DNA of 64,000 nucleotides from Bacteroidales bacterium (GCA_045627865.1 JAZQOK010000018.1:41193-105192), one strand, 5' to 3'; numbered from the stretch's first letter, positions 10,150 through 38,516 are shown. Program-made: numbers and translations. The notes: generated by a model from the letters alone, not told the origin.

Positions 10150-10152
10150 TGC

Positions 10153-10617: not shown

Positions 10618-10638
10618 GATTGTTGAAAGAGTAAGAAT

Positions 10639-12195: not shown

Positions 12196-12215
12196 TGTAT
12201 CAAAAAGTTAAATAA

Positions 12216-19172: not shown

Positions 19173-20630
19173 TTACTCCCATTCACGGAGAATCTGCATC
19201 GCTCTGTTCTGTGCTCTCTTGACCGAAGCCGGATCCGAAGAATCAATCTTAAAGTAGGATGGATCTGGCAGATAGAGAGGCAGACCGACAGGCACATTAT
19301 TAGGATTGCCCAACTGGAAGGCATTCACATCATAGACATAGGCCCAGAAAGCCTTATCGCCGTAATTGCGCAAGGCAACGAGCGTCAATCGACCGCCCTC
19401 GCCCAGCTGATCCATCTTAGGCTGGCCATTTTCCAGCAGGAGCATATCGTTCGACGGCTTAGTTCCCTTAGGCAACGATGGCTTAGAAGCACTTTGCGCT
19501 ACCGGCTTGGTTGGAGCGGGTTGGGCCGCTTTGGGCTGGGTAGGAGCAGCAGACTGAGCCGGCTTGGCAGGAGATTCCGGGAGTTCCGCGGTTTCTGGAT
19601 TTGCCGGACTATCCGGGCTTTCTGAAGCAACGATATTTTCGGTGGCAGCGACTTCCTGTTTAGGCTCCTTCGGTGACGATGGAACCAACAGCCAGACCAG
19701 CAGCACCAGCAACACGACAACACCCGCAATGCCACCATACAGGTAAGATTTCGGCAACGACTTGAGTTGCTCCAATTGAGGTTTGAAGTTATCCAGTTGT
19801 GGCTTGAGTTTATCCAAGAGTGATGGCTCCGGTTCACGAACACGCTTCTTGACGGGGGCTGGGGCAGGAGTCGGTTCTGGGACTGGAGCGGGAGCAGGGG
19901 CCGGCTCAGGCACTGGGGCTGGGGCGGACTCTGGTTCTGGAGCCACAATAGGGTCCGGACTTTCCGGATTTTCTGGTTCGGTTGGCTCGGTTGGCACAAC
20001 TGGCTCAGTTGGTTCTGCCGGACTTTCCGGCTCAACAGGAGCCTCTGGCTTTGGTGCCTCTGCAGCGACTACCATAGGCTCAAAGCAGGCAAAAGGAGCA
20101 TTTACCAGATTACGCATCTTTTCGTCCACCTGGAGCGACATCCGGCGGCCCTGCTGGCTCTCCACCCACGAGAAGATACCCAAGCCCTGGATTTCGACAG
20201 GATCGTTCGCATCCAGTCGTTCCAAGATCAGTTTAGTCACCGTATGCATAAAGAACTCAGCATCTCCCTCTGTTGCCTTGGCATAGCGAGCCAGATGGAA
20301 AGAGAACTGCGTAGCATTCAGTTCATGCACATTCGCAGCAGGATCCTGTTGCGACAACCGGTACGAGATGCGAGGCGGATACATTGTCTGCAATCCAGAA
20401 TCTGGATCTTCAGCCACATACTCTGGGTGTTTCGTTGCCACGAAATGGCCGATTCCCTCCCACTCTACCGCAATCTGTTCAGTTGCCTGTTCCGCCATCA
20501 GTTTGATGGCAGACTGCATCAGGGCTGAACTCGTCTGACGGTCCAGTCCGCTGCGGTTTTGTACCTCTGTCAAGAAATCCTTGTGTGTCACGATAGCTGA
20601 TTGTTTTACAGTTCTATATTCAAAGTTCAA
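19173..20630 (-). CDS. tandem HU-like domain protein with Pro-rich linker, TM helix and LysM-like C-terminus
   Basis: HU-like strings VEWEGIGHFVATK and VEIQGLGIFSWVE. PEPxPAPAPVPEP low-complexity linker. TM helix YLYGGIAGVVVLLVLLVWLLV. The first codon of the ORF is TTG (20630); an in-frame GTG at 20591 is an alternative start. Confidence 0.6.
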   Translation of the reverse strand: MNFEYRTVKQSAIVTHKDFLTEVQNRSGLDRQTSSALMQSAIKLMAEQATEQIAVEWEGIGHFVATKHPEYVAEDPDSGLQTMYPPRISYRLSQQDPAANVHELNATQFSFHLARYAKATEGDAEFFMHTVTKLILERLDANDPVEIQGLGIFSWVESQQGRRMSLQVDEKMRNLVNAPFACFEPMVVAAEAPKPEAPVEPESPAEPTEPVVPTEPTEPENPESPDPIVAPEPESAPAPVPEPAPAPAPVPEPTPAPAPVKKRVREPEPSLLDKLKPQLDNFKPQLEQLKSLPKSYLYGGIAGVVVLLVLLVWLLVPSSPKEPKQEVAATENIVASESPDSPANPETAELPESPAKPAQSAAPTQPKAAQPAPTKPVAQSASKPSLPKGTKPSNDMLLLENGQPKMDQLGEGGRLTLVALRNYGDKAFWAYVYDVNAFQLGNPNNVPVGLPLYLPDPSYFKIDSSDPASVKRAQNRAMQILREWE

Positions 20631-20736: not shown

Positions 20737-20744
20737 TATATTTG
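20737..20744 (+). promoter_or_regulatory. candidate -7 box (TATATTTG) for clpC
   Basis: Exact match to TAnnTTTG, 24 nt upstream of the ATG at 20768. No clean -33 TTTG at the expected spacing. Confidence 0.45.
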
Positions 20745-20767
20745 CACCCAATTTTTAAGGATATATA

Positions 20768-23362
20768 ATGAAAAGCGAATATACAGAACACGTAAAACAG
20801 GTTATCGACTACATCAAGAGCGAATCGGTACGACTGCACAGCCGCACCATTCGTCCGGAGCATTTCATGCTCGGCATCCTGGTCAACGGACAGGGCAAGG
20901 CGATCGAAGTCTTACGCAGCCAAGGCGTTGACCTCGAAGCTCTGCGCATCCATATCGAGGAGGCACTGATCAACGAGAGCAAGTGTTCCGACACAGATAA
21001 GAGACCCGAAGAGGGGGCTCACGACAATGTCATGCCTGATACCATTATGTCGCATACTGGTGACCGTACCCTCAAACTCTCGCAGCTTGAGGCCCGTATG
21101 TTACATCAGGACAATATCGGTACCGAGCACCTTGTACTGGCAATGCTCAAAGACAACAAGAGCAGCGTCAGCCAGCTAATGCAGCAGTACAACGTCGACT
21201 ACAAGTCCTTCCACGAAGCATTGACGGGTGCCGATGGCAAGGTCGACCAAGACGATATCACCAACGAAGATATTGAGGCAATGCGCCGCAACCGCGAGAA
21301 TAACGAAGAAGACGAAGAGGACGAAGAGATGAGCAGTGCCTACACACCAGCAGGCAATAACCGCCAGGTCAATACAACGACCGCCAAGACTGCCTCGGGA
21401 GACAGTGATACGCCAACGCTCGATCGTTTCGGTTTCGATGTCACCCAAGCCGCACGCGAAGGCAAGCTGGATCCAGTTGTCGGACGTGAATCTGAGATCG
21501 AACGAGTAGCACAGATTCTCTCTCGTCGCAAGAAGAACAATCCAATCCTCCTCGGCGAGCCAGGCGTCGGAAAGACCGCCATTGTCGAAGGATTGGCCCA
21601 GCGCATCGTTGAGAAGAAGGTCAGTTTCCTGCTCAAGAACAAACGCATAGTCAGTCTGGACATGGCGGGCCTCGTAGCAGGCACCAAATACCGCGGACAA
21701 TTCGAGGAGCGTCTCAAAGGAATCATGCAGGAGGTAAGCAACAACCCGAACATCATCCTTTACATCGACGAGATTCACACCATGGTCGGTGCGGGCAATG
21801 CACAGGGATCGATGGATGCCGCTAACATGCTCAAACCAGCCCTCAGCCGTGGCGAGATGCAGTGCATCGGCAGCACCACATTGGCAGAGTTCCGCAAAAG
21901 CATCGAGAAGGATGGTGCCTTGGAGCGTCGTTTCCAGAAGGTGATTGTAGAGCCGACCAAAGCGGCCGACACCCTCGCCATTCTCCACAATATCCGCGAC
22001 CGATACGAAGAGCACCATTGTGTTCGATTCTCGGACGAGGCGTTGCAGGCTTGCGTTACCCTGAGCGACCGATACATCACCGACCGCAACTTCCCAGACA
22101 AGGCCATCGACGTCATGGACGAAGCCGGCTCACGCATGCATCTCTTCTCGGCCCATGCCCCTGAATCGTTCGACGAATTAGAGCAGCAGCTCGAAGAGGT
22201 CCGACAGAAGAAGGATGAGGCCATACTCTCGCAGCAGTATGAGTTGGCTGCTACCTATCGTGACCAGGAACGACAGATCGACGAGAAGCTCAAGGCCGAA
22301 AAAGCCAAGATCGAACAGCAGGATCGTGCTGACGCGCCATTGGTCGACGACGAAAAGATTGCCGAAGTCGTAGCACAGATGACCGGAATTCCGGTCCAGA
22401 AAGTAGCCAGCAGCGAAGGACAGAAGCTGCTCACCCTCAAGCAGACGCTCCAGCAGCGTGTTGTGGGACAGGACGATGCCATCCAGAAGGTTGTCAAAGC
22501 CATCCAGCGCAACCGCATCGGACTCAAAGATCCGAAGCGACCGATTGGAACCTTCCTCTTCCTGGGACCTACCGGCGTAGGCAAGACCTATCTGGCCAAG
22601 AAGATTGCCGACGAGCTCTTTGCGACCCCCGATAGCCTCATCCGCATCGACATGTCCGAGTTTATGGAGAAATACAGCACCTCCCGTCTCATCGGAGCAG
22701 CACCAGGCTACATCGGTTACGAAGAGGGCGGACAGTTGACCGAACGTGTACGCCGTCGTCCTTATTCCGTCATTCTGTTCGACGAGATCGAGAAGGCAGA
22801 CCACGAAGTCTTCAACCTGCTGCTTCAGCTTTTCGACGAAGGACATCTCACCGACTCCACCGGACGCAAGATTGACTTCAAGAACTGCATCATCATACTG
22901 ACCAGCAACGTCGGAAGCCGTCAGTTAGGCGATTTCGGCACCGGTATCGGTTTCCAGGACTACAACGACAAGGAGCGTCAGGCAGCCAACGAGGCTGTTA
23001 TCCGCAAGGAGCTCAAGAAGACCTTCTCGCCCGAGTTCCTGAACCGCATCGATGATATCATCACCTTCCGTCAGCTCAATCACGACGATATCCGCAGCAT
23101 TGTCGATGCAGAACTTCAGCCAGTGCTTGACCGCATCAAGGCACAGGGCTACGATGTCGAGGTCACCGAAGCCATGAAGGACTTCCTGGCCGACAAGGGC
23201 TATGATCCTAAGTATGGTGCCCGTCCACTGCGTCGTGCCATTCAGGAGTACATCGAAGATGCGCTCTGCGAACAGATCTTGAACGATACTTCGTACGAAA
23301 ACGATAACGATAACGAAAACAAAAGGCACATCGTTCTCGATGCGCCTGCAGCCAATAACTAA
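20768..23362 (+). CDS. clpC: ATP-dependent Clp protease ATP-binding subunit, ClpC type
   Basis: Clp_N repeats, Walker A GEPGVGKT and GPTGVGKT, a UVR-like coiled coil ([13 protein letters not shown]) and a ClpP-docking GIGF loop. The C-terminal tail ...[23 protein letters not shown] is encoded by a hexamer repeat. Confidence 0.9.
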
Positions 23363-23385
23363 TAGCCATTAGCCAATAGCCAATA
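23288..23385. repeat. hexamer (AACNNN) array followed by five phased heptamers (GCCAATA-like), spanning the clpC stop codon
   Basis: 23288-23324 is the 37-nt element acttcgtacgaaaacgataacgataacgaaaacaaaa. 23351-23385 reads gccaata/actaata/gccatta/gccaata/gccaata. The clpC TAA is at 23360-23362. Confidence 0.9.
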
Positions 23386-23415
23386 AAAAGCCAACTCAAT
23401 CCGAGTTGGCTTTTT
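23386..23415. terminator. bidirectional intrinsic terminator between clpC and rpiB
   Basis: 9-bp stem agccaactc / gagttggct with a 5-nt loop, flanked by an A-run and a T-run. Confidence 0.8.
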
Positions 23416-23419
23416 ATTA

Positions 23420-23860
23420 TCATTTGCAAGGGATATCCTCGATACGCTGCTGATGACGACCACCAGCGAATTCGGTAGCGAAGAATTCATCCAGACACTG
23501 TCTGCAGGTCTCCTCGCTGATGAAGCGACCTGGGAAGACAATCACATTCGCATTGTTGTGCTCACGGATCAGGTGGGCGATTTCAGGCTGCCATACCAAA
23601 CCGGCACGGATGCTCTGGTGCTTGTTCAAGGTCATCGAGATACCCTCGCCTGAACCGCACATAGCGATACCAGGATAAACCTCACCCTTCTCGATACCCT
23701 CAGCCAAAGCGTGGCCGAAAGTAGCATAGTTGCACGACTCCTCGGTCAGAGTACCATAATCCTTCCAGGCCAGGCCCTTCTCATCCAGGTACTTCTTGAC
23801 GAACTGCTTCAATGGGAAGGCAGCGTGATCGCTTGCCAATCCTACAATCTTAACTTCCAT
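23420..23860 (-). CDS. rpiB: ribose 5-phosphate isomerase B
   Basis: GIAMCGSGEGISMTLNK motif. The start ATG shares nt 23860 with the upstream stop (TAATG). Confidence 0.92.
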   Translation of the reverse strand: MEVKIVGLASDHAAFPLKQFVKKYLDEKGLAWKDYGTLTEESCNYATFGHALAEGIEKGEVYPGIAMCGSGEGISMTLNKHQSIRAGLVWQPEIAHLIREHNNANVIVFPGRFISEETCRQCLDEFFATEFAGGRHQQRIEDIPCK

Positions 23861-24696
23861 TACTTCTGAATGATCAAATATGGAGAAGCATTCCAGAATG
23901 CAACAATATCAGAGATCTCGAGCAAAGTAGTACCATCAGCCTGTGGCTTCAAAGTGTAAGAGCTAGCTGGCTTCTCGGTGATGAGTTTTGGAGCCTTGCT
24001 TGGGATGGTGATAGTAGTAAGCTCGCGCATATCAGCCTTGGTGAACTTGCTGGCATCCATATTATCGTAGTCTGCACGCTTCTTGAAGACGCCTTCGATC
24101 AGACCATTAGCCTTGAGGTTCTTCTTGGTGTCGATTACATAATATACGGTGTTGAGCTCAATCTCCTGCTGGTTAGCAATCTCCTGGATCTGGTTACGCT
24201 CGATCTCAACCTTCTGCTTAGCAACGGTCATATCGTTCAGACGGTTCTTGAGATCCTCGATGCTTGCCTTGCTGTCCTGCAACTGAGCCTGGAGATCAGC
24301 GATCTGAGCATCCTTCTCAGCGATCTGTTCGTTGAGCTGGTCGATCATCTTCTGGAGTTCGCTGTTGCGATAGCGGCTGTTAGAGAGCTTCTTCTTCTGA
24401 GCCTCCAACTCCTCGCGCTGCTTAGCCATACGGTCACGGATGGTCTGCATACGGGTCAGAACGGCATTCTTATCCTTGAGGTCATTACCCTCGTCGTCAA
24501 CGAAGATCAAACCCTCGCTTACTGCGATTTCAGACATAGCGCTGTTCACGGTGCTGATTACTTCGGTCATCTGGCTGTTAGCCTCAGCAATTGAATCGAG
24601 CTGAGCCTTGAGCGCATCATACTGTTCCTGTGGAACCTTTGGGGTACAACCTGCCAACAGAGCTGCGCAGCTTGCCATCATCAAAATCTTTTTCAT
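23860..24696 (-). CDS. coiled-coil lipoprotein, function unknown
   Basis: Lipobox LLAGC. A long heptad-like segment (REELEAQKKKL ... QIADLQAQLQDSKASIEDLKNRL) is followed by a small C-terminal domain. Confidence 0.7.
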   Translation of the reverse strand: MKKILMMASCAALLAGCTPKVPQEQYDALKAQLDSIAEANSQMTEVISTVNSAMSEIAVSEGLIFVDDEGNDLKDKNAVLTRMQTIRDRMAKQREELEAQKKKLSNSRYRNSELQKMIDQLNEQIAEKDAQIADLQAQLQDSKASIEDLKNRLNDMTVAKQKVEIERNQIQEIANQQEIELNTVYYVIDTKKNLKANGLIEGVFKKRADYDNMDASKFTKADMRELTTITIPSKAPKLITEKPASSYTLKPQADGTTLLEISDIVAFWNASPYLIIQK

Positions 24697-27089
24697 TGCT
24701 TTTGATAAATTAATTGATTATTTATTATTTGGAATTTATTGTTTCCCATCTTGATAGGTCTGCCGAACAGATCATAGCGGGTTGCATTATTGCTCTTGAC
24801 GGCCTGGAGGGTCTCGATGCCCGTATTATTCGATTCATGGAAGCTATGGATGACGACCTTGCTCCACTCCGACTTGTACGAACCGCATACAGAACGCACC
24901 TGGAATGAATAATCGTAATCCGTATCGAATTCCTGGTCATACATAGCGAACGAGGTAGCGTTGCCCAGAACCTGATAGAAATCCTCCTGCTTGGTAGCAT
25001 TGTTCGAAATCTCGATCGATGCCACGTAGGCACGTTTCTTCGGCTTGATCTGTACATAGCATTGACCGGTAGCGCCCTCCAGTTCAATCTCCTGAACCGA
25101 ACCGTCGGCATTGACCACCTGACTGGCAACGACCTGCTTCTGATCACTCAGCAAAGAGATAGTCACACTATTATCATCCGAGCCGTAAGGCACCAGTTCT
25201 GCCTTCACAAGCACCGTTCCGTTAGCCTCCAGCATAGGTGTACGCAGTGTACCCTGCGAGGTCGAAGTACCAATCTTCAGGCCATACACGCCCTGATAGA
25301 TTCTGACACCATACCAACCTGGAAGCGCAGTATAATGATCCAACGAAGCAGAGATATCCTTGGTGGCATCCTTTTCAACAACGAAATTATCCATCGACTC
25401 CAACAGATAGGCACCTGCCTCGTCATGCTTCCACGAGGCAACCTTCACCTCGTACGAAGTAGCACCCTCAACAGGTTCCCAAGAGAGCGACATGCAGTAG
25501 TCGTCGGCTGTCAAAGCCAACTCTGGCGCATCAACCTTGACGCCACCCTTGAAGCTGAAACCGATCAGGCCAGCCTTTTCGGTAATACCCTCGATAGGGG
25601 CATTCAGGAACTTCTTACCATCCGAATTTTTATTATAGGTGGTAGCTGCAGGGGTAGTCGAATTGGTCAATGCAGTCTTGCCCTTCGTACCTGGCCAGGT
25701 CTGACCTCTCAGCGAGGCATCATCCGATGCATGAGAATTATTTGCAGGAACGATGGTCAGACGTGGGTGCGACGGGTCATCATTCACCGAGTTACCATAC
25801 CAGGCCTGGGCATTATAGTCCACATGGGTAATCAGCAGACCATGAGCATTGCTTGGATAGCTGTACCAGCGCTTGTTCTGACGGTTCTCGAGCAGATAAG
25901 CCTCATAGTGCTCTGCCTCATTATATATAATATAGGCACAGGCAGAGTCTCCCAGGTTCGGCATATTGCTCACCACGCATGGATCTGTCAGCTCAGTCAG
26001 TTCGAGCCAACCGCCCATCCAGCGTTCGTAGGCCGACATACCACAAGGCACCTCACCCAGACCATTAGGTCCGCTGTATGAACCGGCATCCATCAGATCC
26101 CAGTCACCCGGCGAAGCTGCGCCCGAATAATCGGTATCATACATATCCGGGAATCCGAGGCAATGCGAGAACTCGTGACAGGCCGTTCCGATACCGTTAG
26201 GCGTAGAACCGCTGGTATAAGCCAGCTCCGCACTACAGGCATAGGTATCGATACGCACGCCATCCAAGGTCTGTGCACCGACCGAAGCACCGCCATAGTA
26301 CTGAGAATAACTCAAATGATACTCATGTGGCCAGATGGTATTCGAGTCAGCGCCATAGTTCTCGCCATAACCGGCATAGATCACATAGACCTGATCCACC
26401 TCGCCATCGCCGTCCCAGTCATATTTACTGAAATCGACCGAGTCGTTGATCATCTTGCAGGCCTCAACGATCATCTCCTCCGGTTTGTCATCATTACCCT
26501 GACCACCAACATTCTTTCCGTAGTATGAATAGTTGTTCTTAACCGTTACAGGGCCAACAACATCGAACTCAATATTCAGCTTACCATAGCTCTGGTCGCT
26601 GAAGTAGTCACTCACCGAACCAATGTGTCCATTCCCAGAGTATCCCTTCTTGTTGAACATATCGTCGAAGGTTTTGTGGGGAGTGACCATTTGTTTGTTC
26701 TTGAAGTTTACCAGAATCACCAGACCGTGCTTATCGCCCTCACGCGGACAGCGTTCGCCGATCTCATGCTTAGCCATAGGGGCACGCTGGGCTGAGGCGA
26801 GACGCTCCATACGGAGCTGGTTGATCTGTTGTCTTTTTTCCAACGCACACTTCATCTGTGCTTCGAGAGTGGTTGCATCTTCTGGCCGATACCAACCGGT
26901 TTCGGCATCATACGTTACGACGGTTCCATCCTGAGTCATCAGGCCATGGAAATACTCGTCACCGAAAGCACGCACAACCAGTTCAGAACCGTCTGGTTGG
27001 GTTACTTTAAAGAAAGATGGTCGTGCTGGCACTGCCCAAACCGACAGTGCCACCACGAACATATATATTCCACAAAGGATTCTTTTCAT
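24693..27089 (-). CDS. M6 (immune inhibitor A-like) zinc metalloprotease with T9SS C-terminal sorting tail
   Basis: Signal peptide. N-terminal PSFFKVTQPDGSELVVRAFGDEYFHG. Zinc site HEFSHCLGFPDMYD. C-terminal RYDLFGRPIKMGNNKFQIINNQLIYQKQ. Confidence 0.8.
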   Translation of the reverse strand: MKRILCGIYMFVVALSVWAVPARPSFFKVTQPDGSELVVRAFGDEYFHGLMTQDGTVVTYDAETGWYRPEDATTLEAQMKCALEKRQQINQLRMERLASAQRAPMAKHEIGERCPREGDKHGLVILVNFKNKQMVTPHKTFDDMFNKKGYSGNGHIGSVSDYFSDQSYGKLNIEFDVVGPVTVKNNYSYYGKNVGGQGNDDKPEEMIVEACKMINDSVDFSKYDWDGDGEVDQVYVIYAGYGENYGADSNTIWPHEYHLSYSQYYGGASVGAQTLDGVRIDTYACSAELAYTSGSTPNGIGTACHEFSHCLGFPDMYDTDYSGAASPGDWDLMDAGSYSGPNGLGEVPCGMSAYERWMGGWLELTELTDPCVVSNMPNLGDSACAYIIYNEAEHYEAYLLENRQNKRWYSYPSNAHGLLITHVDYNAQAWYGNSVNDDPSHPRLTIVPANNSHASDDASLRGQTWPGTKGKTALTNSTTPAATTYNKNSDGKKFLNAPIEGITEKAGLIGFSFKGGVKVDAPELALTADDYCMSLSWEPVEGATSYEVKVASWKHDEAGAYLLESMDNFVVEKDATKDISASLDHYTALPGWYGVRIYQGVYGLKIGTSTSQGTLRTPMLEANGTVLVKAELVPYGSDDNSVTISLLSDQKQVVASQVVNADGSVQEIELEGATGQCYVQIKPKKRAYVASIEISNNATKQEDFYQVLGNATSFAMYDQEFDTDYDYSFQVRSVCGSYKSEWSKVVIHSFHESNNTGIETLQAVKSNNATRYDLFGRPIKMGNNKFQIINNQLIYQKQ

Positions 27090-29107
27090 TACTTCTTAAG
27101 CATCTTCTTAACCTGGTTGTAAACATTCTCACCGGTGAAACCGAGTTTCTCGTCAAGAACCTTGTAAGGAGCAGAGAAGCCAAAGCTTGAGAGACCCCAA
27201 ACCTCACCATCAGCGCCAACGAGACCCTCGAGGGTTACAGGCAGACCAGCGGTCATACCGAACTTAGGCTTGCCAGCAGGGAGGATAGAGTTCTGATATG
27301 CCTTGCTCTGACGACGGAACAGACCCTCAGAAGGAACACTTACGATACGGCACTTGATACCATCAGCACGCAACTGCTCAGCGCCAGCTACGAGAGTAGC
27401 AACCTCTGAACCAGAAGCGAGGAGGATAACATCGTACTGATCGTCTGAACCAGCAACGATATAAGCACCCTTCTCAGCCTGGCTGTAGTCGTTACCAGCA
27501 GGCAAAGTCTTGATGTTCTGACGAGAGAAGATCAAGCCGGTTGGGCCATAAACGTTCTCCATAGCCATCTTCCAAGCCTGGGTGGTCTCGTCTGAGTCAG
27601 CAGGACGGAGAACCAACATAGAGTTGCGACCCTTGTGGGTACGGAGCTTCTCCATCAAGCGGATCTGTGCCTCATGCTCAACTGGCTCATGGGTAGGTCC
27701 ATCCTCACCAACACGGAATGCATCGTGGGTCCAGATGAACTTCACTGGGAGCTCCATCAAGGCAGCCATACGAACAACAGGGAGCATATACTGTGAGAAT
27801 ACGAAGAAGGTACCACAAGCAGGGATAACACCACCGTGGAGAGCCATACCTACGCAGCAGCAAGCCATAGTGAACTCAGCAACACCAGCCTGGAAGAATG
27901 CGCCACTGAAGTCGCCCTTCTGGAGGTCGTGAGTAAATTTAAGGAAGCCATCGGTCTTATCTGAGTTCGAAAGGTCAGCCGAAGCACAGATCATGTTAGG
28001 TACCTGCTGAGCGAGCTGAGAAAGAACAGCTGCAGATGCGCTACGGGTAGCGTCGTCAGCCTTCTGCTCAACCTTGCTCCAGTCGATCTGAGGAGCCTTA
28101 CCGCTGAACCACTCACGCATCAGCTTAGCCTTCTCTGGGTTAGCTGCCTCCCACTCTGCCTTCTTAGCATACTTGGCATCCATGATCTTGCGGAGTTCAG
28201 CACGACGCTGAGCGTAGAGCTTCTTAACCTCTGGGAAGATCTGGAATGGATCGGTAGGATCACCGCCCAGGTTCTTGATGGTGTTGGTGAATGCATCGCC
28301 ACCGAGAGGAGCACCGTGAGTCTTGCAGTTACGCTCGTATGAGGTACCGTCAGCCTTCAAAGCACCCTTACCCATGATACACTTACCGATGATGAGGGTT
28401 GGCTGGCCCTTGGTAGACTTAGCGTGGCGCAAGGCGCCACGGATCTGCTCAACATCATTACCGTTGATCTCGAGGACGTTCCAGCCCCAAGCGCGATACT
28501 TAGCAGCAGTGTTCTCGGTAGTAACGACCTTACACTCGGTAGAGAGCTGGATATCGTTTGAGTCATAGAACATGATGAGGTTATCCAAACCGAGGGTACC
28601 AGCGATACGACCTGCGCCCTGGCTTACCTCCTCCTGGATACCACCATCCGAGATGTAGGTATAGATCTTCTGACCCATCACCTCCTCACCCAGACGGGCA
28701 GCGAGGAACTTGGCAGCGATAGCAGCACCTACAGCATAGGCGTGACCCTGACCAAGAGGACCAGAAGTATTCTCGATGCCACGCTTAACGTCCAACTCTG
28801 GGTGACCGGTTACAGGGCTACCCCACTGACGGAGGGTCTGCAACTCATCGGTAGTGAACTTACCAGCGAGGCACAACTGTGCATAGAGCATTGGAGCCAT
28901 GTGACCTGGGTCGAGGAAGAAACGGTCACGACCCTCGAATGTCATGTTCTTTGGATCATACTCAAGGTACTCTGAGAACAACACGTTAATGAAATCGGCA
29001 CCGCCCATGGCGCCACCTGGGTGACCGCTCTTAGCCTTCTCTACGGCTGCGGCTGCAAGGATACGGATATTGTCCGCTGCCTTGTTCATCAATTCTACTG
29101 AATTCAT
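27089..29107 (-). CDS. tkt: transketolase
   Basis: SGHPGGAMGGAD TPP motif and GEDGPTHEPVEH. Confidence 0.97.
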   Translation of the reverse strand: MNSVELMNKAADNIRILAAAAVEKAKSGHPGGAMGGADFINVLFSEYLEYDPKNMTFEGRDRFFLDPGHMAPMLYAQLCLAGKFTTDELQTLRQWGSPVTGHPELDVKRGIENTSGPLGQGHAYAVGAAIAAKFLAARLGEEVMGQKIYTYISDGGIQEEVSQGAGRIAGTLGLDNLIMFYDSNDIQLSTECKVVTTENTAAKYRAWGWNVLEINGNDVEQIRGALRHAKSTKGQPTLIIGKCIMGKGALKADGTSYERNCKTHGAPLGGDAFTNTIKNLGGDPTDPFQIFPEVKKLYAQRRAELRKIMDAKYAKKAEWEAANPEKAKLMREWFSGKAPQIDWSKVEQKADDATRSASAAVLSQLAQQVPNMICASADLSNSDKTDGFLKFTHDLQKGDFSGAFFQAGVAEFTMACCCVGMALHGGVIPACGTFFVFSQYMLPVVRMAALMELPVKFIWTHDAFRVGEDGPTHEPVEHEAQIRLMEKLRTHKGRNSMLVLRPADSDETTQAWKMAMENVYGPTGLIFSRQNIKTLPAGNDYSQAEKGAYIVAGSDDQYDVILLASGSEVATLVAGAEQLRADGIKCRIVSVPSEGLFRRQSKAYQNSILPAGKPKFGMTAGLPVTLEGLVGADGEVWGLSSFGFSAPYKVLDEKLGFTGENVYNQVKKMLKK

Positions 29108-29198
29108 AACTCTCGAATTAATTATTGGTTTGTAATTATTTGATGATATTGTTTTTTATTGAATTTTCTATCCATCGATTCATCGAATTATCGTAAAA

Positions 29199-30758
29199 TC
29201 ACTCCTTGAAGAGTACAATCACATACGGTGCCTTTCGGCCCACGATGGTACCCTGTTTGTCGGCAGGAACCCCGAGACGTTCCAGTTTCACCTGCAGAGC
29301 CTCGTAATCCTCCTCGTCACAGAGCAGAAGGGTATTCTGCAGACCTCCATCAGCAATCAGTTCCGGAGTGGCGGCATGAGGATCCTCGTGCAGATAGACA
29401 TCCATGTTCGACATACTCTGCAGTCGGTACGTATAGAAGCCCTCGGTCTTCAGTTCACGGCTGATTCGGTTTGCCTTCCAGCAGAGGTGGCCGTAGCAGC
29501 CCAGGCGACCATTGTTGGTCGAAACGAAGCAACCGGCCAGGAAGATACCGATCAGGATAAATCGGCACACCCACAGCATACGCCATTGCCAGACCAGAGG
29601 CCAGTTCCAATGACCCATCTGCATCACGCCCACATAGATCAGGAAAGGCAGTACAGGCAGCAGTCGGACATCGATCTTGCCCGGGATGCAGCTCAGCATA
29701 ACCAGCGTGCTCAGCACCGTCATGGCGAAGAAGTTCTGCAACGGAGTCGGCAAACTGAACTGGCGGAGGAACTTGTTTCCATGCACCGGCTCACCGCTCA
29801 CCGCAGACCGCTCACCGCTCATCGCCAACTGCTTATATCTCTTAATCATCGACGCGATAAGCATCACCATACAGAGAGGGCCCCACGGCACAGTATCCCA
29901 CCACACGGAACCTAAGTAATAGAACCAGGGTTTCTCGTGCACAGAGAGGCTCTCGAGCAAAGGCTGGTAAACGAACGTATCCGGAATGTGGTCGAAATAA
30001 TCCATGCCACCCTCAATCCAGGCTGCGCCCAGCCAGAGACCGATACCGGAGCCCAGAATCAGCCAGGTTCGCCAACCCCACACACGGATCCAGCTATTGG
30101 CTCGTCCGCTGGTCAGCAGGTAAACCGTTGTCGTCAGGAAGGCGATTGCTGGTCCCCACAAGCCCTTTGTCAGGAACGAAAGCAGGATGAAGAGACCGAA
30201 ACGGAACTGGTAGCGGATCGTACCTCTTTCGCGAGGTTTCACGCCACGTTCCTCGTTCGCACCCAACGGTTCGTAGAGGATCTGCCAGAAGTTATAGAGA
30301 GCCAGCACGATCCAGAGGGTATTGAGCATATCCATGCGGACATAGAAACTCATGAAGAAGAACATGCCCGTTGTGAAAAGCATCCATTGAGCCAGATCAC
30401 GGCTCTGGCTACCATCTATCAGACGCAGACCGCCCATTTCATAGCGCCACACCCATCGGTGCATCACCTGAACGATCAGCAGTGCAGGCAGCAGCGAGAA
30501 GAGGCACAGTTCGATCATGTACCAATGGCGGAAGATCACCTTCGATACCATCAGCAGCCAGAAGTAGAGCGGAGGGAACTCCGTATAAGGTTCACCCTGC
30601 AGATACATCGCAACCCAATGGTTCTCCTTCAGCGCCTCGAGAGCCACAGCGATGTACTTCAGTTCGTTGTTTGGCGTAAAGTCACGAAGAAGCAATACTG
30701 GGAGCAGCGCCAGTATGAACGGATAGTATTGATTCCAGAACCGTTTAACTTCTTGCAT
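29199..30758 (-). CDS. polytopic ArnT/PMT-like glycosyltransferase (GT39/GT83-like)
   Basis: Many TM helices and an N-terminal loop with EFPPLYFWLL. The start ATG shares nt 30758 with the upstream stop (TAATG). Family assignment is tentative. Confidence 0.5.
   Translation of the reverse strand: MQEVKRFWNQYYPFILALLPVLLLRDFTPNNELKYIAVALEALKENHWVAMYLQGEPYTEFPPLYFWLLMVSKVIFRHWYMIELCLFSLLPALLIVQVMHRWVWRYEMGGLRLIDGSQSRDLAQWMLFTTGMFFFMSFYVRMDMLNTLWIVLALYNFWQILYEPLGANEERGVKPRERGTIRYQFRFGLFILLSFLTKGLWGPAIAFLTTTVYLLTSGRANSWIRVWGWRTWLILGSGIGLWLGAAWIEGGMDYFDHIPDTFVYQPLLESLSVHEKPWFYYLGSVWWDTVPWGPLCMVMLIASMIKRYKQLAMSGERSAVSGEPVHGNKFLRQFSLPTPLQNFFAMTVLSTLVMLSCIPGKIDVRLLPVLPFLIYVGVMQMGHWNWPLVWQWRMLWVCRFILIGIFLAGCFVSTNNGRLGCYGHLCWKANRISRELKTEGFYTYRLQSMSNMDVYLHEDPHAATPELIADGGLQNTLLLCDEEDYEALQVKLERLGVPADKQGTIVGRKAPYVIVLFKE
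29788..29829. repeat. six phased heptamers (CGCTCAC-like) embedded in frame in the glycosyltransferase CDS
   Basis: ggctcac/cgctcac/cgcagac/cgctcac/cgctcat/cgccaac is 42 nt, or 14 codons, encoding AMSGERSAVSGEPV on the minus strand. Confidence 0.85.
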
Positions 30759-32062
30759 TATCTGTTTACTTTAACTCTGACACGATCAATTCTGCGACGA
30801 TCCATAGCGACGATCGTGAATTCGATCCCCTTGAAGCGGATATGTTCGTTGACGCGTGGGAAGTTCTGCTTCACTTCGAGAATCAGGCCACCCAGGCTTT
30901 CGCAGTTATCTGCCTTACCGCCCAGTTCATCGATATCGAGGTCGATGACGTGGCAGAAATCGTTCAACGAAGTGCGGGCCTCGAAGATCCATTCATTCTC
31001 GCCCACCTTCTGCCAGGTCTGGTCATCCTCGTCATATTCATCGTGGATTTCGCCCACGATCTCCTCGAGCACATCCTCCATCGTGATCAAGCCCGAAGTG
31101 CCACCGAACTCATCCACTACGATTGCCATGTGGCGACGCTTGCTACGGAAGTCATTCAAGAGGTCATCGATCATCTTGTTCTCCGGAACATAGAAAGCCT
31201 CTCGTACCAGGTCCTTCCATCGGAAAGTGGCAGGCTGGTTCAGGTAGGGCAACAGGTCCTTGATATAGAGGATACCCTTGATGCTATCTTCGGTGCCTTC
31301 ATACACCGGCACGCGGCTGTATTTCTGGTCAACGACCAGTTTCAGTACCTGGTCGAACGGTTCGTCGATCGAGAGCGAAACCATCTCGCTGCGACTGGTC
31401 ATGGCATCCTTCACTGTCTTGTCGGCAAATTCGATGATACCCTCCAGCATCTTCTTCTCCTCCTTGTTACGAGCCACCTGTGGGGTAAGCTTCAAGGCGT
31501 CGCTCAGGTCCTCGACCGTCACCTCCTCGCCCATACGTTCAGCCAGTCGGCGATTGATGATACCGGTACTGCCCACAAGCATGGTCACGAACGGACCGAA
31601 ACAGGTCACCATCAGCTGCATCAGATGAGCCGTCATGCGGGCGAAGCTCAAAGCTCGGTGGGTGGCATAGACCTTAGGCAGCACCTCGCCAAACAGCAGC
31701 AGGAGGAATGTCAGCACTACGGTCTCCAGCAGGAAAAGCATCACTGTGCTTGACTGTTCGTAATCGATGGCGCCATTCATGAACAGGGTGAAGAGCATGA
31801 TGATTGCCACATTCACCAGATTGTTACCGATCAGGATGGCTGCCATCAGACGTTCGCTGTTCTCCAGCAGTCGTCCGATAATAGCATCCACAGGGTTCTC
31901 CTGGCTATTCAGGCTCTCCTTATCGCGAGGCGAGAGGGAGAAGAATGCCACCTCGCTACCCGAGATAGTAGCCGAAGCGAACAGCAGCAGCACTGCGATT
32001 CCCAAAGCTACCCAGGCGCTTAGATCCGGCCAGGCAAAACATATATCGTACCAATTGTTCAT
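30758..32062 (-). CDS. DUF21-CBS pair-CorC_HlyC protein (CNNM/CorC family; GldE-like)
   Basis: Four N-terminal TM helices, two CBS-like repeats (KDAMTSRSEMVSL ..., YSRVPVY) and a C-terminal CorC-type domain (ESLGGLILE). Confidence 0.75.
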   Translation of the reverse strand: MNNWYDICFAWPDLSAWVALGIAVLLLFASATISGSEVAFFSLSPRDKESLNSQENPVDAIIGRLLENSERLMAAILIGNNLVNVAIIMLFTLFMNGAIDYEQSSTVMLFLLETVVLTFLLLLFGEVLPKVYATHRALSFARMTAHLMQLMVTCFGPFVTMLVGSTGIINRRLAERMGEEVTVEDLSDALKLTPQVARNKEEKKMLEGIIEFADKTVKDAMTSRSEMVSLSIDEPFDQVLKLVVDQKYSRVPVYEGTEDSIKGILYIKDLLPYLNQPATFRWKDLVREAFYVPENKMIDDLLNDFRSKRRHMAIVVDEFGGTSGLITMEDVLEEIVGEIHDEYDEDDQTWQKVGENEWIFEARTSLNDFCHVIDLDIDELGGKADNCESLGGLILEVKQNFPRVNEHIRFKGIEFTIVAMDRRRIDRVRVKVNR

Positions 32063-32951: not shown

Positions 32952-32983
32952 CAAATATACGCACATAAATCCTATTCCCCAAA
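32952..32983 (-). promoter_or_regulatory. candidate promoter for cdaA
   Basis: On the minus strand, TATATTTG (32959-32952) and TTTG (32983-32980) are separated by 20 nt. The -7 box lies 26 nt upstream of the ATG. Confidence 0.55.
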
Positions 32984-34768: not shown

Positions 34769-37126
34769 TTATCGAACAAACTCTACCTTGCCATCGCGGA
34801 TCAGCAGTCCCGACTTGGCATAGCTGCGCTGACCAGCCAGATTAAAGAAGATATCACTGTTACGTTGCAGGTTCTCGCTGACAGATTCGAGCACTGTCTC
34901 AGAATCTGCACCAAGGCCCGTAAGTTTCAGGCGAAGCTGAGGAGACCCCGTCGGGGCAGATACTCCGTACGTATAATACCAGCGATACGGAGGGATATCA
35001 CTAACCGAAGTACCCACCTTGCCCAACACACCGTCACTGATGGAATAACAACTATTTGCATTCGTATTTATACCACTGCTGCTCGTCGATGCGGTTGTGG
35101 CATAGAATGCAGACATATAAGTTTCCTGATAATTAGAAACAACCTCATAGCCATTTTCCGCGTCCTCAAAGTCCTCCACCTTCAGCACATTCTGAATTGC
35201 AAAGGAGATGGCATTGCCCGTAACCGATCTCAGAATCATTGGCTCATTAATAGGTGTCGATCCAGACTGAATCTCACGAAAGGTCAACGAAATGCTGTTA
35301 TCCGTCTGATTCAAGACGTCTCCAACAAACTCATAAGCCACAATACCCAACCCTTCCAATGTCGATATTGGAATTGAGAATGGCAGACAGGACGTGCGAG
35401 GAGTAGTCCTCGAGAAATTCAATACAACCTCTAGATTTTCTATATAGTACGCATCAGTCAGACCTACGACATTATCATCAAAAGAACTATGTCCTGTTGG
35501 CGAAAGTATTGCCTCGAACTTTGTCCATATACCACTTTCAGCCGTCTCATAAGCAGAACGAACAGATCCATCCACAATCAGGTAACAACCATAGAAGGAG
35601 TCATACTCATTTGATTGTGGAGGAGTTGTTGCATTGATAAAATAGAGGGCATGATCACAACTCTGCTGACCATAGAACTCCTGAAGATTCGCATTGGTCA
35701 TGTGAATCTCCTTCAGTTTTTTGCTATTGTAGAAGTTTCCATTATTCACATACTCCGCATTAGTCGAGAAATAGGTCAGGTTTTTCATGTTCGAAACAGC
35801 ACAAATGGAAAGCGTTCTGACTGTTTCCGGAGTCGTAAAACTAGTTACAGTATGAGCAGAAGGCAATACGATCAACGTCTCTTTTGCGGCATCATACAGC
35901 ACACCATCTTCGCTCACAAAGTGCGTGTTGCCCTCATCGACCGTAACGCTCTCCAGATTCAGATTTCCAAAAAAGACATTATCTCCAATCTCCGTAATGG
36001 TAGAGGGCAAACTGACAGTCAACAAATCCGAACTTTGATAGAATGCATTCGTGCCAATTTGCGTTACTACAAACGTTTTTCCATTGGCGATGATCGATTC
36101 TGGTATGGTCAAATGGCCCTCATAACGGACACTATATTGGGCATCCTGCGACAGAACCACCTCGTTCTCCGTTTCTGGAATGGAGCAATAATACAAAGGT
36201 GTTTCGTTCGAATCTTCATCCGCATAACCAGCCTCATGGACATAATCGATAATATCGGCCCAGCCGGTTGGCTCTGGGCCAGTCGTGCTCGAAATCTCCA
36301 GCTCCGACGTCTTATACAAGTCGCGTCTTCCCAATGGGATATAGATTGACAGGTCCGGCATCGTCTCCAGGTCAAACACTTCCTTGATATACGGACCCGT
36401 CTCTATGTTGGCAAAGTCAACAGTCGTGATTCCATAAGGCTCACCCCCCCATTCCTCTATGAACTGCGGTGCTAGAATATACTTAATACCAGCACCAAAG
36501 TGGACGTGCTGCAAATAAGTACACCCAAGGAGTGCTGCCTGCTGAAGAGTTTCCGTGCTATTCGGGAATGTAAGATCATAAAAGTTTGCATTTCCCGCAA
36601 AGGCATACGAGCCAATGGTAATCACACCATCTGGAACAACAAACGTCGACTCGCCTTTTCCTCCAGGATACAACAACAATTTGGTTACATCGGCATTATA
36701 AACCACATCGTCTATGACCTTGAAAGCTGTGTTGTTCGGATCGATTGTTACAGAATTCAATCGCGGGCAAAAACGGAACGGATTGTTTGGAAGAGATACT
36801 AACGATGCAGGGAGTTCTACCTGATTCAGATAAGCACACTTTTCAAAAGCTCCTTGTCCGATTGAGGTGAGTGTAGAGGGCAAATTGAGTTTAACGATAG
36901 TACTGCAGTTTGCAAATGCTTCATCACCAATAGAGGTCACCGTAACAGTTTTTCCATCATACTCGCAGACTTCTGGAATTGTAGTCTCCGACGGGAGTTC
37001 ACCGTCATAACCCGTCACCTTCACAGATTCACTATCTATCGGTTCATACGTAAATACTTGCGCCATGCCAGCAGCACAACACAACATCAGGAATGACACT
37101 AAAAATATCTTTCTTTTCATTTTCAT
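34769..37126 (-). CDS. BspA-type leucine-rich-repeat surface protein with T9SS C-terminal sorting tail
   Basis: Repeated LRR_5-like units (IGDEAFANCSTIVKLNLPSTLTSIGQGAF ...). C-terminal FFNLAGQRSYAKSGLLIRDGKVEFVR. The ORF-track start at 37129 is TTG; the first ATG is at 37126. Confidence 0.8.
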   Translation of the reverse strand: MKMKRKIFLVSFLMLCCAAGMAQVFTYEPIDSESVKVTGYDGELPSETTIPEVCEYDGKTVTVTSIGDEAFANCSTIVKLNLPSTLTSIGQGAFEKCAYLNQVELPASLVSLPNNPFRFCPRLNSVTIDPNNTAFKVIDDVVYNADVTKLLLYPGGKGESTFVVPDGVITIGSYAFAGNANFYDLTFPNSTETLQQAALLGCTYLQHVHFGAGIKYILAPQFIEEWGGEPYGITTVDFANIETGPYIKEVFDLETMPDLSIYIPLGRRDLYKTSELEISSTTGPEPTGWADIIDYVHEAGYADEDSNETPLYYCSIPETENEVVLSQDAQYSVRYEGHLTIPESIIANGKTFVVTQIGTNAFYQSSDLLTVSLPSTITEIGDNVFFGNLNLESVTVDEGNTHFVSEDGVLYDAAKETLIVLPSAHTVTSFTTPETVRTLSICAVSNMKNLTYFSTNAEYVNNGNFYNSKKLKEIHMTNANLQEFYGQQSCDHALYFINATTPPQSNEYDSFYGCYLIVDGSVRSAYETAESGIWTKFEAILSPTGHSSFDDNVVGLTDAYYIENLEVVLNFSRTTPRTSCLPFSIPISTLEGLGIVAYEFVGDVLNQTDNSISLTFREIQSGSTPINEPMILRSVTGNAISFAIQNVLKVEDFEDAENGYEVVSNYQETYMSAFYATTASTSSSGINTNANSCYSISDGVLGKVGTSVSDIPPYRWYYTYGVSAPTGSPQLRLKLTGLGADSETVLESVSENLQRNSDIFFNLAGQRSYAKSGLLIRDGKVEFVR

Positions 37127-37143
37127 CAAAATTAATTACCGAA

Positions 37144-37220
37144 CACGAATCCAACGAATTGAACGAATAACAAATGAGGTATATAGAGATTTAATTCGAG
37201 TGATTCGAGCTATTCGTGGT
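37144..37220. repeat. two opposed triplets of 9-bp units (core CGAAT / ATTCG) upstream of the LRR gene
   Basis: cacgaatcc/aacgaattg/aacgaataa at 37144-37170 and attcgagtg/attcgagct/attcgtggt at 37194-37220, around a 23-bp AT-rich centre. Confidence 0.8.
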
Positions 37221-37265
37221 CAAAAAACTTATTTCCGCTTCTTTCCCAAAAATACTACAGTCAAA

Positions 37266-38270
37266 TTAATCGATATTCGTAATCTCCTCGTCGGTGACAG
37301 TCAAGACCAACTTGCCGTCTGATTGCGTGAAAGCGGTCACATTCAGCGTCACAGCGGTACCCATCATGCCCGACAGGTCCAAGTCGAAATGACCTTCGGC
37401 GACCCACGTCGGCTCATCTCCAGGATCATTATTAGCGCCTATCTTGCAGACAGCAATATACTTCTGCGGGAACACATAATTGGTAAAAACTGGCTGAAAA
37501 TTCCATTCTTGACCCACAGGCGTAGCAGGCAAACTTTGACTCCAATCATAACCAAAATTTTCAGAGGCCCAATCATATTCATCACGTGTCTCGTAAGTAA
37601 ATCCTTCCGGCATCGATTCGGCAACGATCCACTGGTTCTGGGTAATATTAAATTGCTCAATCTTATCACCGTACAGATCCAAACCAGCGAAATAATTAGC
37701 AAACCGATAATCAGCCGCATCCACGAAGGCCAAATTCAATGTAATCATTGTCAACAAGTGCTTGAATGAGAACGAAACCGTTCTGTCGTTGGTTGTAGCC
37801 CCAACTCCATAGGAAGTGGCTAACATCAAGTCAAATTCGCCACCGAGTTCAGGTTCAATCATAGTTAGCACCAAATCTCCATCCTCGGTATACGAAAGTT
37901 CATCCTCATCCAGCGCTCCTGGAGAAAGAGCAATGAAATCGAATTTTGTTTCGTTATCTGGCCAAGAGTGTCCCTCAACTGCATTGAACAACCAAGCCCC
38001 GGCATCATCAAAGCGACAGTAATCAGTAAAGTAATTGTTTACTTCGGTCTCGCCAACTTGACGTTGATAGTTACACCACACCAAAAAGCCATATTCTTTA
38101 AGATTATCCAAGGATTCATCGGCACGAGTCTTGAATTCCGACGAAGAAGCCTCGACGCAGATGGGAACATCTGTGTTAGTTTCTGGAGCAAGAGAATCCT
38201 CCGACTCCGATGAACAACTATTAAGTGACAGAATGGTACCCAATATAGTCAAATAGCGTAAGTATTTCAT
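37266..38270 (-). CDS. fimbrillin-family lipoprotein (Mfa/FimA-like)
   Basis: The internal ATG at 38270 gives a lipoprotein signal MKYLRYLTILGTILSLNSC. Family-like strings DLMLATS and VSFSFKHLLTMITLNL. The longer ORF-track N-terminus was rejected. Confidence 0.6.
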   Translation of the reverse strand: MKYLRYLTILGTILSLNSCSSESEDSLAPETNTDVPICVEASSSEFKTRADESLDNLKEYGFLVWCNYQRQVGETEVNNYFTDYCRFDDAGAWLFNAVEGHSWPDNETKFDFIALSPGALDEDELSYTEDGDLVLTMIEPELGGEFDLMLATSYGVGATTNDRTVSFSFKHLLTMITLNLAFVDAADYRFANYFAGLDLYGDKIEQFNITQNQWIVAESMPEGFTYETRDEYDWASENFGYDWSQSLPATPVGQEWNFQPVFTNYVFPQKYIAVCKIGANNDPGDEPTWVAEGHFDLDLSGMMGTAVTLNVTAFTQSDGKLVLTVTDEEITNID

Positions 38271-38516
38271 ATTTAATGGTTGTTTAGCTTTATATGCGTG
38301 CAAATTTGATATTTTTTTTCGAATTAACAAAACAAAAAGCATTTTTTTCTTACAGAAAAGGGTCAAAAAAGATGCGATTTCCGAAGTTTTGCACCACAAA
38401 CTTACAAAAAGAGACTCATAATTCTTCAACAATGGTGGTGGGTCCTTCCCTTTTTAAATCTCCCTCTATATCTTAATCTATATCTAATTCATCAACAAAG
38501 GTACCGGCGCATATAC

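Follow-up and report, generated by a model that had tools for sequence, protein, structure and literature searches.

Overlapping gene pairs in prokaryotes are dominated by junctions of the TAATG or ATGA type, in which the two genes overlap by 1 or 4 nucleotides (nt), and Bacteroidetes generally start translation without a Shine-Dalgarno sequence, on A/T-rich and unstructured leaders. One of the protein families considered here is known from Bacteroides fragilis, where BF0586 (Cbp1, the founding member) is a lipoprotein of 31.6 kDa from the outer-membrane fraction that is acylated at Cys17, carries the sequon D32-S33-L34 and binds collagen I in vitro (PMC3949742). We found nothing in the literature on the gene neighbourhood of Cbp1 or on M6 proteases of Prevotella. 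Here we describe a stretch of 64,000 nt from a Bacteroidales bacterium (GCA_045627865.1 JAZQOK010000018.1:41193-105192; its full length is called the window below), in which the housekeeping genes tkt (transketolase) and rpiB (ribose-5-phosphate isomerase B) enclose the genes of an M6 metalloprotease and of a Cbp1-family lipoprotein, with a stop/start overlap at each of the three junctions. As in coupled operons with overlaps of 1 or 4 nt, the same junctions are found at three other places in the window; unlike in the usual coupled operons, the overlaps of interest join functionally unrelated genes and would have been made after insertion, by loss of spacers. We consider it probable that M6 and Cbp1-type passengers were inserted stepwise into the tkt-rpiB pair and that the spacers were then lost, without any link to the pentose-phosphate pathway.

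The four genes lie on the same strand, in the following order:

27089-29107, minus strand: tkt, transketolase, 672 amino acids (aa); Pfam Transketolase_N, Transket_pyr and Transketolase_C_1
24693-27089, minus strand: M6 (immune inhibitor A-like) zinc metalloprotease, 798 aa; PF05547 and TIGR03296
23860-24696, minus strand: Cbp1-family lipoprotein, 278 aa; NF052320
23420-23860, minus strand: rpiB, ribose-5-phosphate isomerase B, 146 aa; PF02502 and NF004051

The gaps between them are -1, -4 and -1 nt. As read from the sequence, nt 27089 is common to the TAA of tkt and the ATG of M6 (...AAGAAGTAATGAAAAGA, TAATG), the M6 and lipoprotein genes overlap in the ATGA at 24693-24696 (...AAAAGCAATGAAAAAG), and nt 23860 is common to the TAA of the lipoprotein gene and the ATG of rpiB (...CAGAAGTAATGGAAGTT, TAATG). 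The original prediction had listed these open reading frames (ORFs) and the overlaps TAATG, ATGA and TAATG, and the ORF coordinates and junction sequences bear it out exactly; its gene identities agree with the family models, and the lipobox LAGC with Cys17 is present. In the family alignments, MK[RK] is column 1 in most M6 homologues and MKK in nearly all Cbp1-like proteins, while the alignment of the rpiB relatives begins at residue 1. As the conserved MK[RK] and MKK give the charged n-region of the signal peptide, the M6 and lipoprotein starts are not arbitrary. Overlaps occur in 9 of the 29 same-strand neighbour pairs of the window, six of them by 1 or 4 nt, including these three; three overlaps in a row are uncommon, yet such junctions are routine in this genome.

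All four genes belong to known families, and it is their arrangement that appears to be lineage-specific. The tkt product scores 569.6 bits against TIGR00232, below the equivalog cut-off of 682, and that of rpiB reaches 167 bits with PF02502 and 144 bits with NF004051 (cut-off 135). The protease scores 80.6 bits against PF05547 (cut-off 22) and 201.9 bits against TIGR03296 (cut-off 110.8), and the lipoprotein reaches 200 bits (cut-off 90) with NF052320, the "Cbp1 family collagen-binding glycoprotein adhesin", with residues 3-277 aligned to model positions 2-286 of 286.

To place the arrangement among relatives, six local proteins were mapped onto 80 rpiB-anchored loci (L numbers below) of species-representative genomes. 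In 46 of the 80, tkt is followed directly by rpiB, the distance ranging from an overlap to 175 nt; a Cbp1-like gene stands between them in six, one of which also has M6, and another insert in eight. No tkt is found upstream of rpiB in 17 loci, and in the remaining three the contig is too short upstream. Where the two genes are adjacent, the native junction may itself be TAATG, TGATG or ATGA, as seen in Prevotella sp. ne3005 (L041), L048, L051, L069, L070, L074 and L079. This bears on the original prediction, which had called the linkage by overlapping codons unusual: in other Prevotellaceae, the native pair is usually joined by TAATG and, because native junctions are often of this kind, an overlap at tkt-rpiB is the local norm and not a special link. 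The comparison points to an ancestral state in Prevotellaceae in which rpiB comes immediately after tkt, in very many cases with an overlap of the TAATG or ATGA type.

Other genes have also come to lie at this junction. In five Prevotellaceae lineages, a gene of about 100-125 aa for a four-helix-bundle protein of the 23S_rRNA_IVP family (PF05635) stands between tkt and rpiB (L012:3959-4340, L016:7569-7947, L029:1272-1569, L030:1255-1609 and L053:7566-7917), with an E-value of 4e-28 for the insert of L016. Further inserts encode a kinase-like protein (Cytidylate_kin2, L060), a LysM lipoprotein (L032) and, on the opposite strand, a secreted protein of 229 aa (L039). Since the inserts are mutually unrelated, the tkt-rpiB junction repeatedly takes passengers and looks like a recurrent insertion site.

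Extra loci were obtained from exact-protein look-ups and from a metagenome scan, in which a single M6 protein used as query gave no relatives and alignment A1 used as query gave the loci. The order tkt-M6-cbp-rpiB (cbp being the Cbp1-like gene) is found in L081/L001, L095/L094, L093, L176, L136 and L091/L092, and the order tkt-cbp-rpiB, without M6, in L083/L011, L021, L033 and L037; L032 has tkt-cbp-LysM-rpiB and L031 has tkt-rpiB-cbp. More distant Cbp1 homologues sit elsewhere: those of Bacteroidaceae and Muribaculaceae follow a TP_methylase gene, and others are found between glycosyltransferase and ABC-F genes or after an acetyl-CoA hydrolase gene. Similarly, 78 of 80 metagenomic loci with M6 homologues of 35-49% identity have neither Cbp1, tkt nor rpiB nearby; of the other two, L136 belongs to the clade considered here, and L168 has a clpB homologue as its only neighbour of this kind. 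The finding that neither insert is near tkt or rpiB elsewhere, together with the unrelated genes at the junction, speaks against any functional link with the pentose-phosphate pathway. Deliberate co-expression with carbon metabolism, one of the two alternatives offered in the original prediction, thus finds no association outside the clade and a junction that takes unrelated passengers. A neighbourhood comparison, as proposed there, presents the inserts as lineage-specific additions to tkt-rpiB and gives no sign of an inherited coupling, as relatives have spacers.

The order of the insertions can be read from the trees and the locus maps. The loci in which a Cbp1-like gene is linked all fall into a single clade of the tkt tree, their tkt being at least 87% identical to that of the window, and genomes with a plain tkt-rpiB pair fall outside it (tkt identity at most about 78%). 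In the tree of Cbp1, the loci that have M6 group into a single sub-clade, within which L083, itself without M6, is the sister of L136, which has it. The most economical history is that the Cbp1-like gene came first, that M6 was gained later, once, and that M6 was deleted in the L083 lineage. According to this history, a Cbp1-family gene would have entered tkt-rpiB in the ancestor of an uncultured gut and rumen clade of Prevotellaceae (the related assemblies L021, L083 and L095 are from horse or elephant hindgut and rumen), with spacers on both sides; one copy of the M6 family would then have been inserted between tkt and the lipoprotein gene, in a sub-clade only, where it appears to have been shortened internally in some lineages and lost in one. 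The original prediction had considered a cassette insertion that kept the coupling. Insertion as the origin holds; a single cassette does not, as the Cbp1-like gene preceded M6, and neither does a preserved coupling, as relatives with the same gene order have spacers and the overlaps are consequently late. The gaps on which this rests, with gene starts in relatives taken by tblastn and the nearest ATG, are as follows (tkt-M6, M6-cbp and cbp-rpiB, in nt):

Window: -1, -4, -1
L095: -1, -4, +8
L081: +51, -4, +13
L176: +54, -4, -1
L093: +64, -4, +55
L136: about +33, +49, about +60
L091: +18, +22, about +33
L083 (without M6): tkt-cbp +108, cbp-rpiB +62

In the M6-less loci as a whole, the tkt-cbp gap is +88 to +216 nt and the cbp-rpiB gap +16 to +62 nt. 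Some of these spacers contain stable hairpins, for instance between tkt and cbp (z-score -4.3) and between cbp and rpiB (z -3.1) in L083, or after tkt in L021, where the hairpin is followed by U8 (z -4.4). Therefore, the genes were once separated by elements resembling terminators or attenuators. Because relatives with the same order have spacers of 8-216 nt, some with hairpins, the triple overlap is a recent, derived compaction: only the M6-cbp ATGA overlap is common to several lineages, and the window is the most compact state observed. The cbp-rpiB TAATG, which is found in L176 and in the window, would have arisen independently in the two. In the lineage of the window, spacers appear to have been deleted stepwise until all junctions were overlaps of 1 or 4 nt, which would be a common outcome when gene pairs are compacted in this genome.

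As regards transcription, three features in and around the unit are relevant:

23382-23418, minus strand: intrinsic terminator hairpin AAAAAGCCAACUC-GGAUU-GAGUUGGCUUUUU after rpiB (fold)
29108-29198, minus strand: spacer upstream of tkt, 91 nt, AT-rich and unstructured, without TAnnTTTG even with one mismatch
32952-32959, minus strand: nearest upstream intergenic -7 box, TATATTTG, 26 nt upstream of the cdaA start (consensus search)

The hairpin after rpiB (-27.1 kcal/mol, z -7.1) was equalled in stability by none of 200 shuffled sequences and, in the fold analysis, is the sole strong hairpin of the four-gene unit, which has no internal terminator; terminator-like matches inside tkt are at chance level (10, against 7.4 +/- 2.5 expected). 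It would mark the end of the transcription unit and be shared with the convergent clpB. The overlaps leave no spacer and hence no room for terminators between the four genes, which agrees with the unit drawn in the original prediction. As there is no spacer, the four genes would have to be transcribed together, down to the hairpin after rpiB. The same source had reported no consensus Bacteroidetes -7 box upstream of tkt; indeed, exact TAnnTTTG is absent from both strands of 20744-32003, and allowing one mismatch brings out no convincing internal promoter ahead of M6, the lipoprotein gene or rpiB in the window. A consensus box upstream of tkt is present in the outer relatives L021, L031 and L032. 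If the unit runs cdaA-CNNM-519aa-tkt-M6-cbp-rpiB, the box at 32952-32959 is a candidate promoter, and relatives have the same gene order. However, the codon bias of tkt is strong and that of the upstream genes weak, which suggests that tkt is driven by strong transcription of its own and not by read-through from cdaA, yet the 91-nt spacer shows no consensus box. The promoter search was consensus-based, and a scan for sigma-70-type promoters was uninformative (9 matches, against 9.9 expected).

Codon bias also separates the members of the unit, as seen in the effective number of codons (Nc) and the codon adaptation index (CAI) relative to tkt:

tkt: Nc 32.5, CAI 0.76
Cbp1-like gene: Nc 31.5, CAI 0.67
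rpiB: Nc 37.3, CAI 0.58
M6: Nc 44.1, CAI 0.41
Upstream 519-aa, CNNM and cdaA genes: CAI 0.33-0.39

The lipoprotein gene is among the most codon-biased of the window, with a bias as strong as that of tkt, which is typical of genes with high expression. These values suggest abundant production of transketolase, the lipoprotein and the rpiB product, and an M6 gene that is not codon-optimised. The passengers might profit from a strong and constitutive housekeeping transcript.

The junction between M6 and the lipoprotein gene has a further peculiarity, at the 3′ end of the former:

24696-24755, minus strand: last 60 nt of the M6 ORF, AT-rich, GC content 0.20 (whole gene 0.50), encoding the tail ...NKFQIINNQLIYQKQ

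Be it spacer or coding sequence, the stretch of 60 nt ahead of the lipoprotein ATG is AT-rich in every case (GC 0.20-0.43). Where M6 and the lipoprotein gene overlap in ATGA (five loci), the final 60 nt of M6 show a GC content of 0.20-0.25, against 0.46-0.57 for the whole gene, and the encoded tail reads ...IINN[QH]LI..., whereas in two loci with a spacer the 3′ end has a GC content of 0.38-0.52 and the tail is more canonical (G..L.NGRKVI, GLTITQGRIVLKK). In the window, this stretch is unstructured (fold z -0.17). The AT-rich 3′ end of M6 thus probably doubles as the translation-initiation region of the lipoprotein gene, as judged from a correlation across seven loci. Since Bacteroidetes work without Shine-Dalgarno sequences, coupling here would rest on AT-rich, unstructured upstream sequence, and downstream starts may be reached by ribosomes that terminate, or load, on the AT-rich 3′ end of the gene upstream. 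A broader proposal, which we put forward tentatively and regard as rather doubtful, is that the tkt-rpiB boundary of Prevotellaceae is a recurrent landing pad for envelope and selfish genes that hitchhike on a strong housekeeping transcript, and that spacers erode there until the upstream 3′ end is recoded into AT-rich codons, as it has to act as a ribosome-loading region too.

The protease itself is well defined. It matches InhA in the PDB (4yu5, E 4e-10) and consists of an N-terminal signal peptide (MKRILCGIYMFVVALSVWA, followed by VP), a catalytic domain at aa 124-422, a C-terminal half of beta-rich and FN3-like domains and a short conserved tail. Its zinc site is the following:

26145-26177, minus strand: zinc-binding/catalytic motif HEFSHCLGFPD, aa 305-315 (read from the sequence)

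H305, E306, H309 and D315 are invariant in 25 M6 homologues (alignment A1), so that the zinc site reported in the original prediction is intact. With the InhA/M6 group (Bacillus InhA, Vibrio PrtV), the protein shares the catalytic domain, the HEXXHXXGXXD motif and a secreted, multi-domain build. It differs in a Bacteroidales-specific architecture, with an N-terminal QPDG...GDE.FH region and FN3-like/beta-sandwich C-terminal domains, and in that a tail of the form T.IE...YDL.GRRV...G.YI.NGKK.I.K replaces the VEG and C-terminal domains of Bacillus InhA. More than 7900 M6 homologues were detected, and the window copy is part of an M6 expansion in Prevotellaceae that is very large. The gene evolves at about four times the rate of its neighbours (nonsynonymous divergence, dN, 0.31 against 0.08), with ratios of nonsynonymous to synonymous divergence (dN/dS) of 0.19-0.22 against its orthologues, values that are rough because dS is near saturation (0.3-2.7). 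Purifying selection of this kind indicates a functional gene and not debris. That M6 is a foreign, recently transferred gene was considered and rejected, its GC content (0.50) and GC content at third codon positions being ordinary for the window. Decay into a pseudogene was likewise rejected for L093 and L136, where the ORFs are intact and internally shortened and keep the C-terminal tail. In these short forms (L093:5745-7487, 580 aa; L136:1818-3536, 572 aa), about 220 internal residues are gone: the FN3-like/beta-sandwich region is deleted and the tail YDL.GRRV...NG..I is kept, as expected of a domain deletion and not of a truncation.

The original prediction had described the C-terminus of M6 as a tail of the type IX secretion system (T9SS). 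The models PF18962 and TIGR04183 do not recognise it, either in the whole protein (no match at E<=0.01) or in the last 74-103 aa, taken on their own, from the window protein and three homologues, those with the cleanest motif included (none at E<=1 for Pfam or E<=10 for NCBIfam). Canonical T9SS type A C-terminal domains are about 70-90 residues long. The M6 tail is shorter, extending about 45 residues past the last FN3-like domain, with the family consensus T.IE...YDL.GRRV...G..I.NG..I..K (alignment A1). Like a type A domain, it is placed at the extreme C-terminus, and YDL.GRRV followed by G.YI.NGKKV..K in the homologues resembles the last strands of such a domain; in the window, by contrast, it is degenerate (RYDLFGRPIKMGNNKFQIINNQLIYQKQ). 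The likeness would be one of motif. The tail is nevertheless probably a real sorting or anchoring signal, because it is kept in the short forms that have lost about 220 internal residues. Some M6 homologues of about 40% identity carry a dockerin (PF00404, sometimes with an EF-hand, PF00036; P0117, P0118, P0128, P0129, P0150, P0173 and P0187), and in P0117, the one of these that was aligned, a dockerin-like repeat takes the place of the usual C-terminal tail; therefore, M6 family members appear able to swap the module used for sorting or anchoring. No Por or Spr component of the T9SS machinery was found among the 27 proteins of the 64-kb window that were scanned against Pfam.

The second passenger would be an N-terminally lipid-anchored, probably O-glycosylated coiled-coil protein of a widely conserved type. 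Its N-terminus is MKKILMMASCAALLAG-C17, with the lipobox LAGC, and this Cys is invariant in 38 family members. D34-S35-I36 fits the O-glycosylation-type sequon D-(S/T)-(A/I/L/M/T/V), and DS[LTVI] is found at the same column in many members. In the family alignment, a helical region of some length is seen together with a C-terminal domain that is well conserved and ends in ...SPYLIIQK. In agreement with this, the AlphaFold (AF2) model has a mean predicted local distance difference test score (pLDDT) of 71, with helices (coiled coil) at about aa 23-182 and a confident, conserved alpha/beta domain at aa 183-278; a Foldseek search of the PDB with this model gave no significant match (best E 0.2). 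The window protein and the B. fragilis Cbp1 are of the same size class (278 aa and 31.6 kDa), both have Cys17 and an SMC-like coiled-coil similarity, and their sequons, D34-S35-I36 and D32-S33-L34, stand at nearly the same place. Additionally, the ...YLIIQK at the C-terminus agrees with the Cbp1 reverse primer, which encodes ...YLVIQ (PMC3949742). On the other hand, the window protein is only about 30% identical to the Bacteroidaceae homologue retrieved, and its gene, unlike those of the Bacteroidaceae and Muribaculaceae homologues retrieved, does not follow a TP_methylase gene. Collagen binding, glycosylation and an outer-membrane or surface location are putative here. Surface export of Bacteroidetes lipoproteins is signalled after the Cys by K-(D/E)2 or Q-A-(D/E)2 (PMC5080379). 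Neither form follows Cys17, the residues there being TPKVP, and surface exposure is consequently doubtful. The two passengers had been presented as a surface pair, a description that is so far unconfirmed, with a protease tail missed by the T9SS models and a lipoprotein without the export signal.

Two rival explanations would give the arrangement a function. In one of them, M6 and the lipoprotein are a two-protein module, in which the adhesin or anchor binds the matrix that the protease cleaves and the coupling serves stoichiometry. InhA/PrtV-family M6 proteases do degrade host matrix and defence proteins, the ATGA overlap is kept in five diverged lineages (window, L095/L094, L081/L082, L093 and L176), and the identities of the two proteins fall in parallel across loci, which fits co-inheritance. 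Collagen I is, moreover, bound by the B. fragilis Cbp1 (PMC3949742). However, the lipoprotein gene is older than M6 at the locus and is M6-free in L083, L021, L033 and L037, Cbp1-like genes stand alone across Bacteroidales in other contexts, and the great majority of the M6 homologue loci (78 of 80) have no Cbp1-like neighbour; the two genes also differ strongly in codon bias, and the lipoprotein has no recognisable surface-export signal after Cys17. We regard such a module as unlikely. The other explanation, adaptive co-expression of envelope factors with enzymes of the non-oxidative pentose-phosphate pathway, for instance for growth on pentose-rich plant fibre, could draw on the retention of the four-gene order over wide divergence (lipoprotein identity down to 52%) and on the fact that the region encodes enzymes for plant cell walls as well (a pectate lyase and a rhamnosidase-like protein), at a distance of about 10 kb on either side. 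It must be set against the constitutive housekeeping nature of tkt and rpiB, the unrelated passengers at the junction in other lineages, the loss and shortening of M6 within the clade, the terminator-like hairpins between the genes in relatives and the lack of any association outside the clade, and seems to us quite improbable. We give very little credit indeed to an artefact, in which mis-assembly of a metagenome bin or wrong start codons would feign the overlaps: this is an assembly from an uncultured organism, an identical M6 protein is found in one NCBI record only, and gene callers have picked downstream ATGs for some orthologues, but the same order recurs in no fewer than seven assemblies that are independent and stem from different studies (L081, L091, L093, L095, L136, L176 and L082), and the MK[RK] starts, which give the charged n-region of the signal peptide, are conserved in both families.

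Stepwise insertion followed by loss of spacers, which we prefer, has points against it as well. The trees are neighbour-joining trees of few loci, with no bootstrap, and if lineages had exchanged M6 by recombination in the conserved flanks, the pattern would look the same as with one gain and one loss. The conservation of the M6-lipoprotein ATGA in five lineages also fits a functional pairing of both proteins, and the dN/dS values are rough, as noted above. What is said here on co-transcription, promoter position and translational coupling is deduced from the sequence; Bacteroidetes promoters can deviate from TAnnTTTG, and an internal promoter may lie within the coding sequence of tkt or M6.

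The surroundings of the unit are of some interest in their own right. At 23363-23420, clpB (plus strand) and rpiB (minus strand) converge on one bidirectional hairpin terminator, beside which the clpB stop region contains an imperfect repeat, AGCCAAT/AGCCATT, about four times (CAGCCAATAACTAATAGCCATTAGCCAATAGCCAATAAAAAGCC). The region between the two genes varies in relatives: L083 and L084 have an identical Cbp1-like protein and different rpiB-clpB content downstream of rpiB (about 9400-12900), one with an ORF of 199 aa and the other with AAA_14/DUF4143, PIN_3, a small ORF and TonB_C. At 19173-20630 (minus strand), the window encodes a protein of 485 aa, listed with a TTG start. It has an HU/Bac_DNA_binding-like domain at the N-terminus (PF00216, E 1e-10), then a long low-complexity stretch rich in Pro, Glu and Ala, a hydrophobic segment and, at the C-terminus, a domain that is conserved; L081 and L094 have a protein of similar size at the same place after clpB, with a faint Bac_DNA_binding match or none. 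Upstream of tkt, between it and the CNNM/CorC gene, lies the gene of a 519-aa membrane protein (29199-30758, minus strand), which has no Pfam match and matches only weakly the ArnT-like glycosyltransferases (NF009784, E 2e-7); it shares 1 nt with the CNNM gene upstream, and its position is conserved throughout the clade. Further away, at 34769-38432 (minus strand), the gene of a BspA-type leucine-rich-repeat protein (786 aa, PF13306) adjoins that of an Mfa-like fimbrillin (388 aa, PF13149). Both have a lower GC content (0.42-0.45) than the rest of the window and a weak codon bias, and the pair may represent an islet of accessory adhesins. When the full window was scanned with Rfam and for tRNAs, there was no match.

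The locus is a caution that a tight stop/start overlap of functionally unrelated genes need not mean functional coupling. It also widens the view of the Cbp1 family, known only as a collagen adhesin of B. fragilis, which proves to be a broadly conserved Bacteroidales lipoprotein; the codon bias of the gene, which is that of very high expression, and the lack of an obvious surface-export signal in the window copy suggest that the family has a more basic role in the envelope. Finally, if the proposed recoding of the protease tail is true, the 3′ end of M6 would be a natural case of dual coding, for a sorting signal and for a translation-initiation region, with the degenerate IINN[QH]LI tail as its visible cost, and the need of Bacteroidetes for AT-rich sequence upstream of their start codons would reshape the tail of the protease wherever the M6 and lipoprotein genes overlap here.

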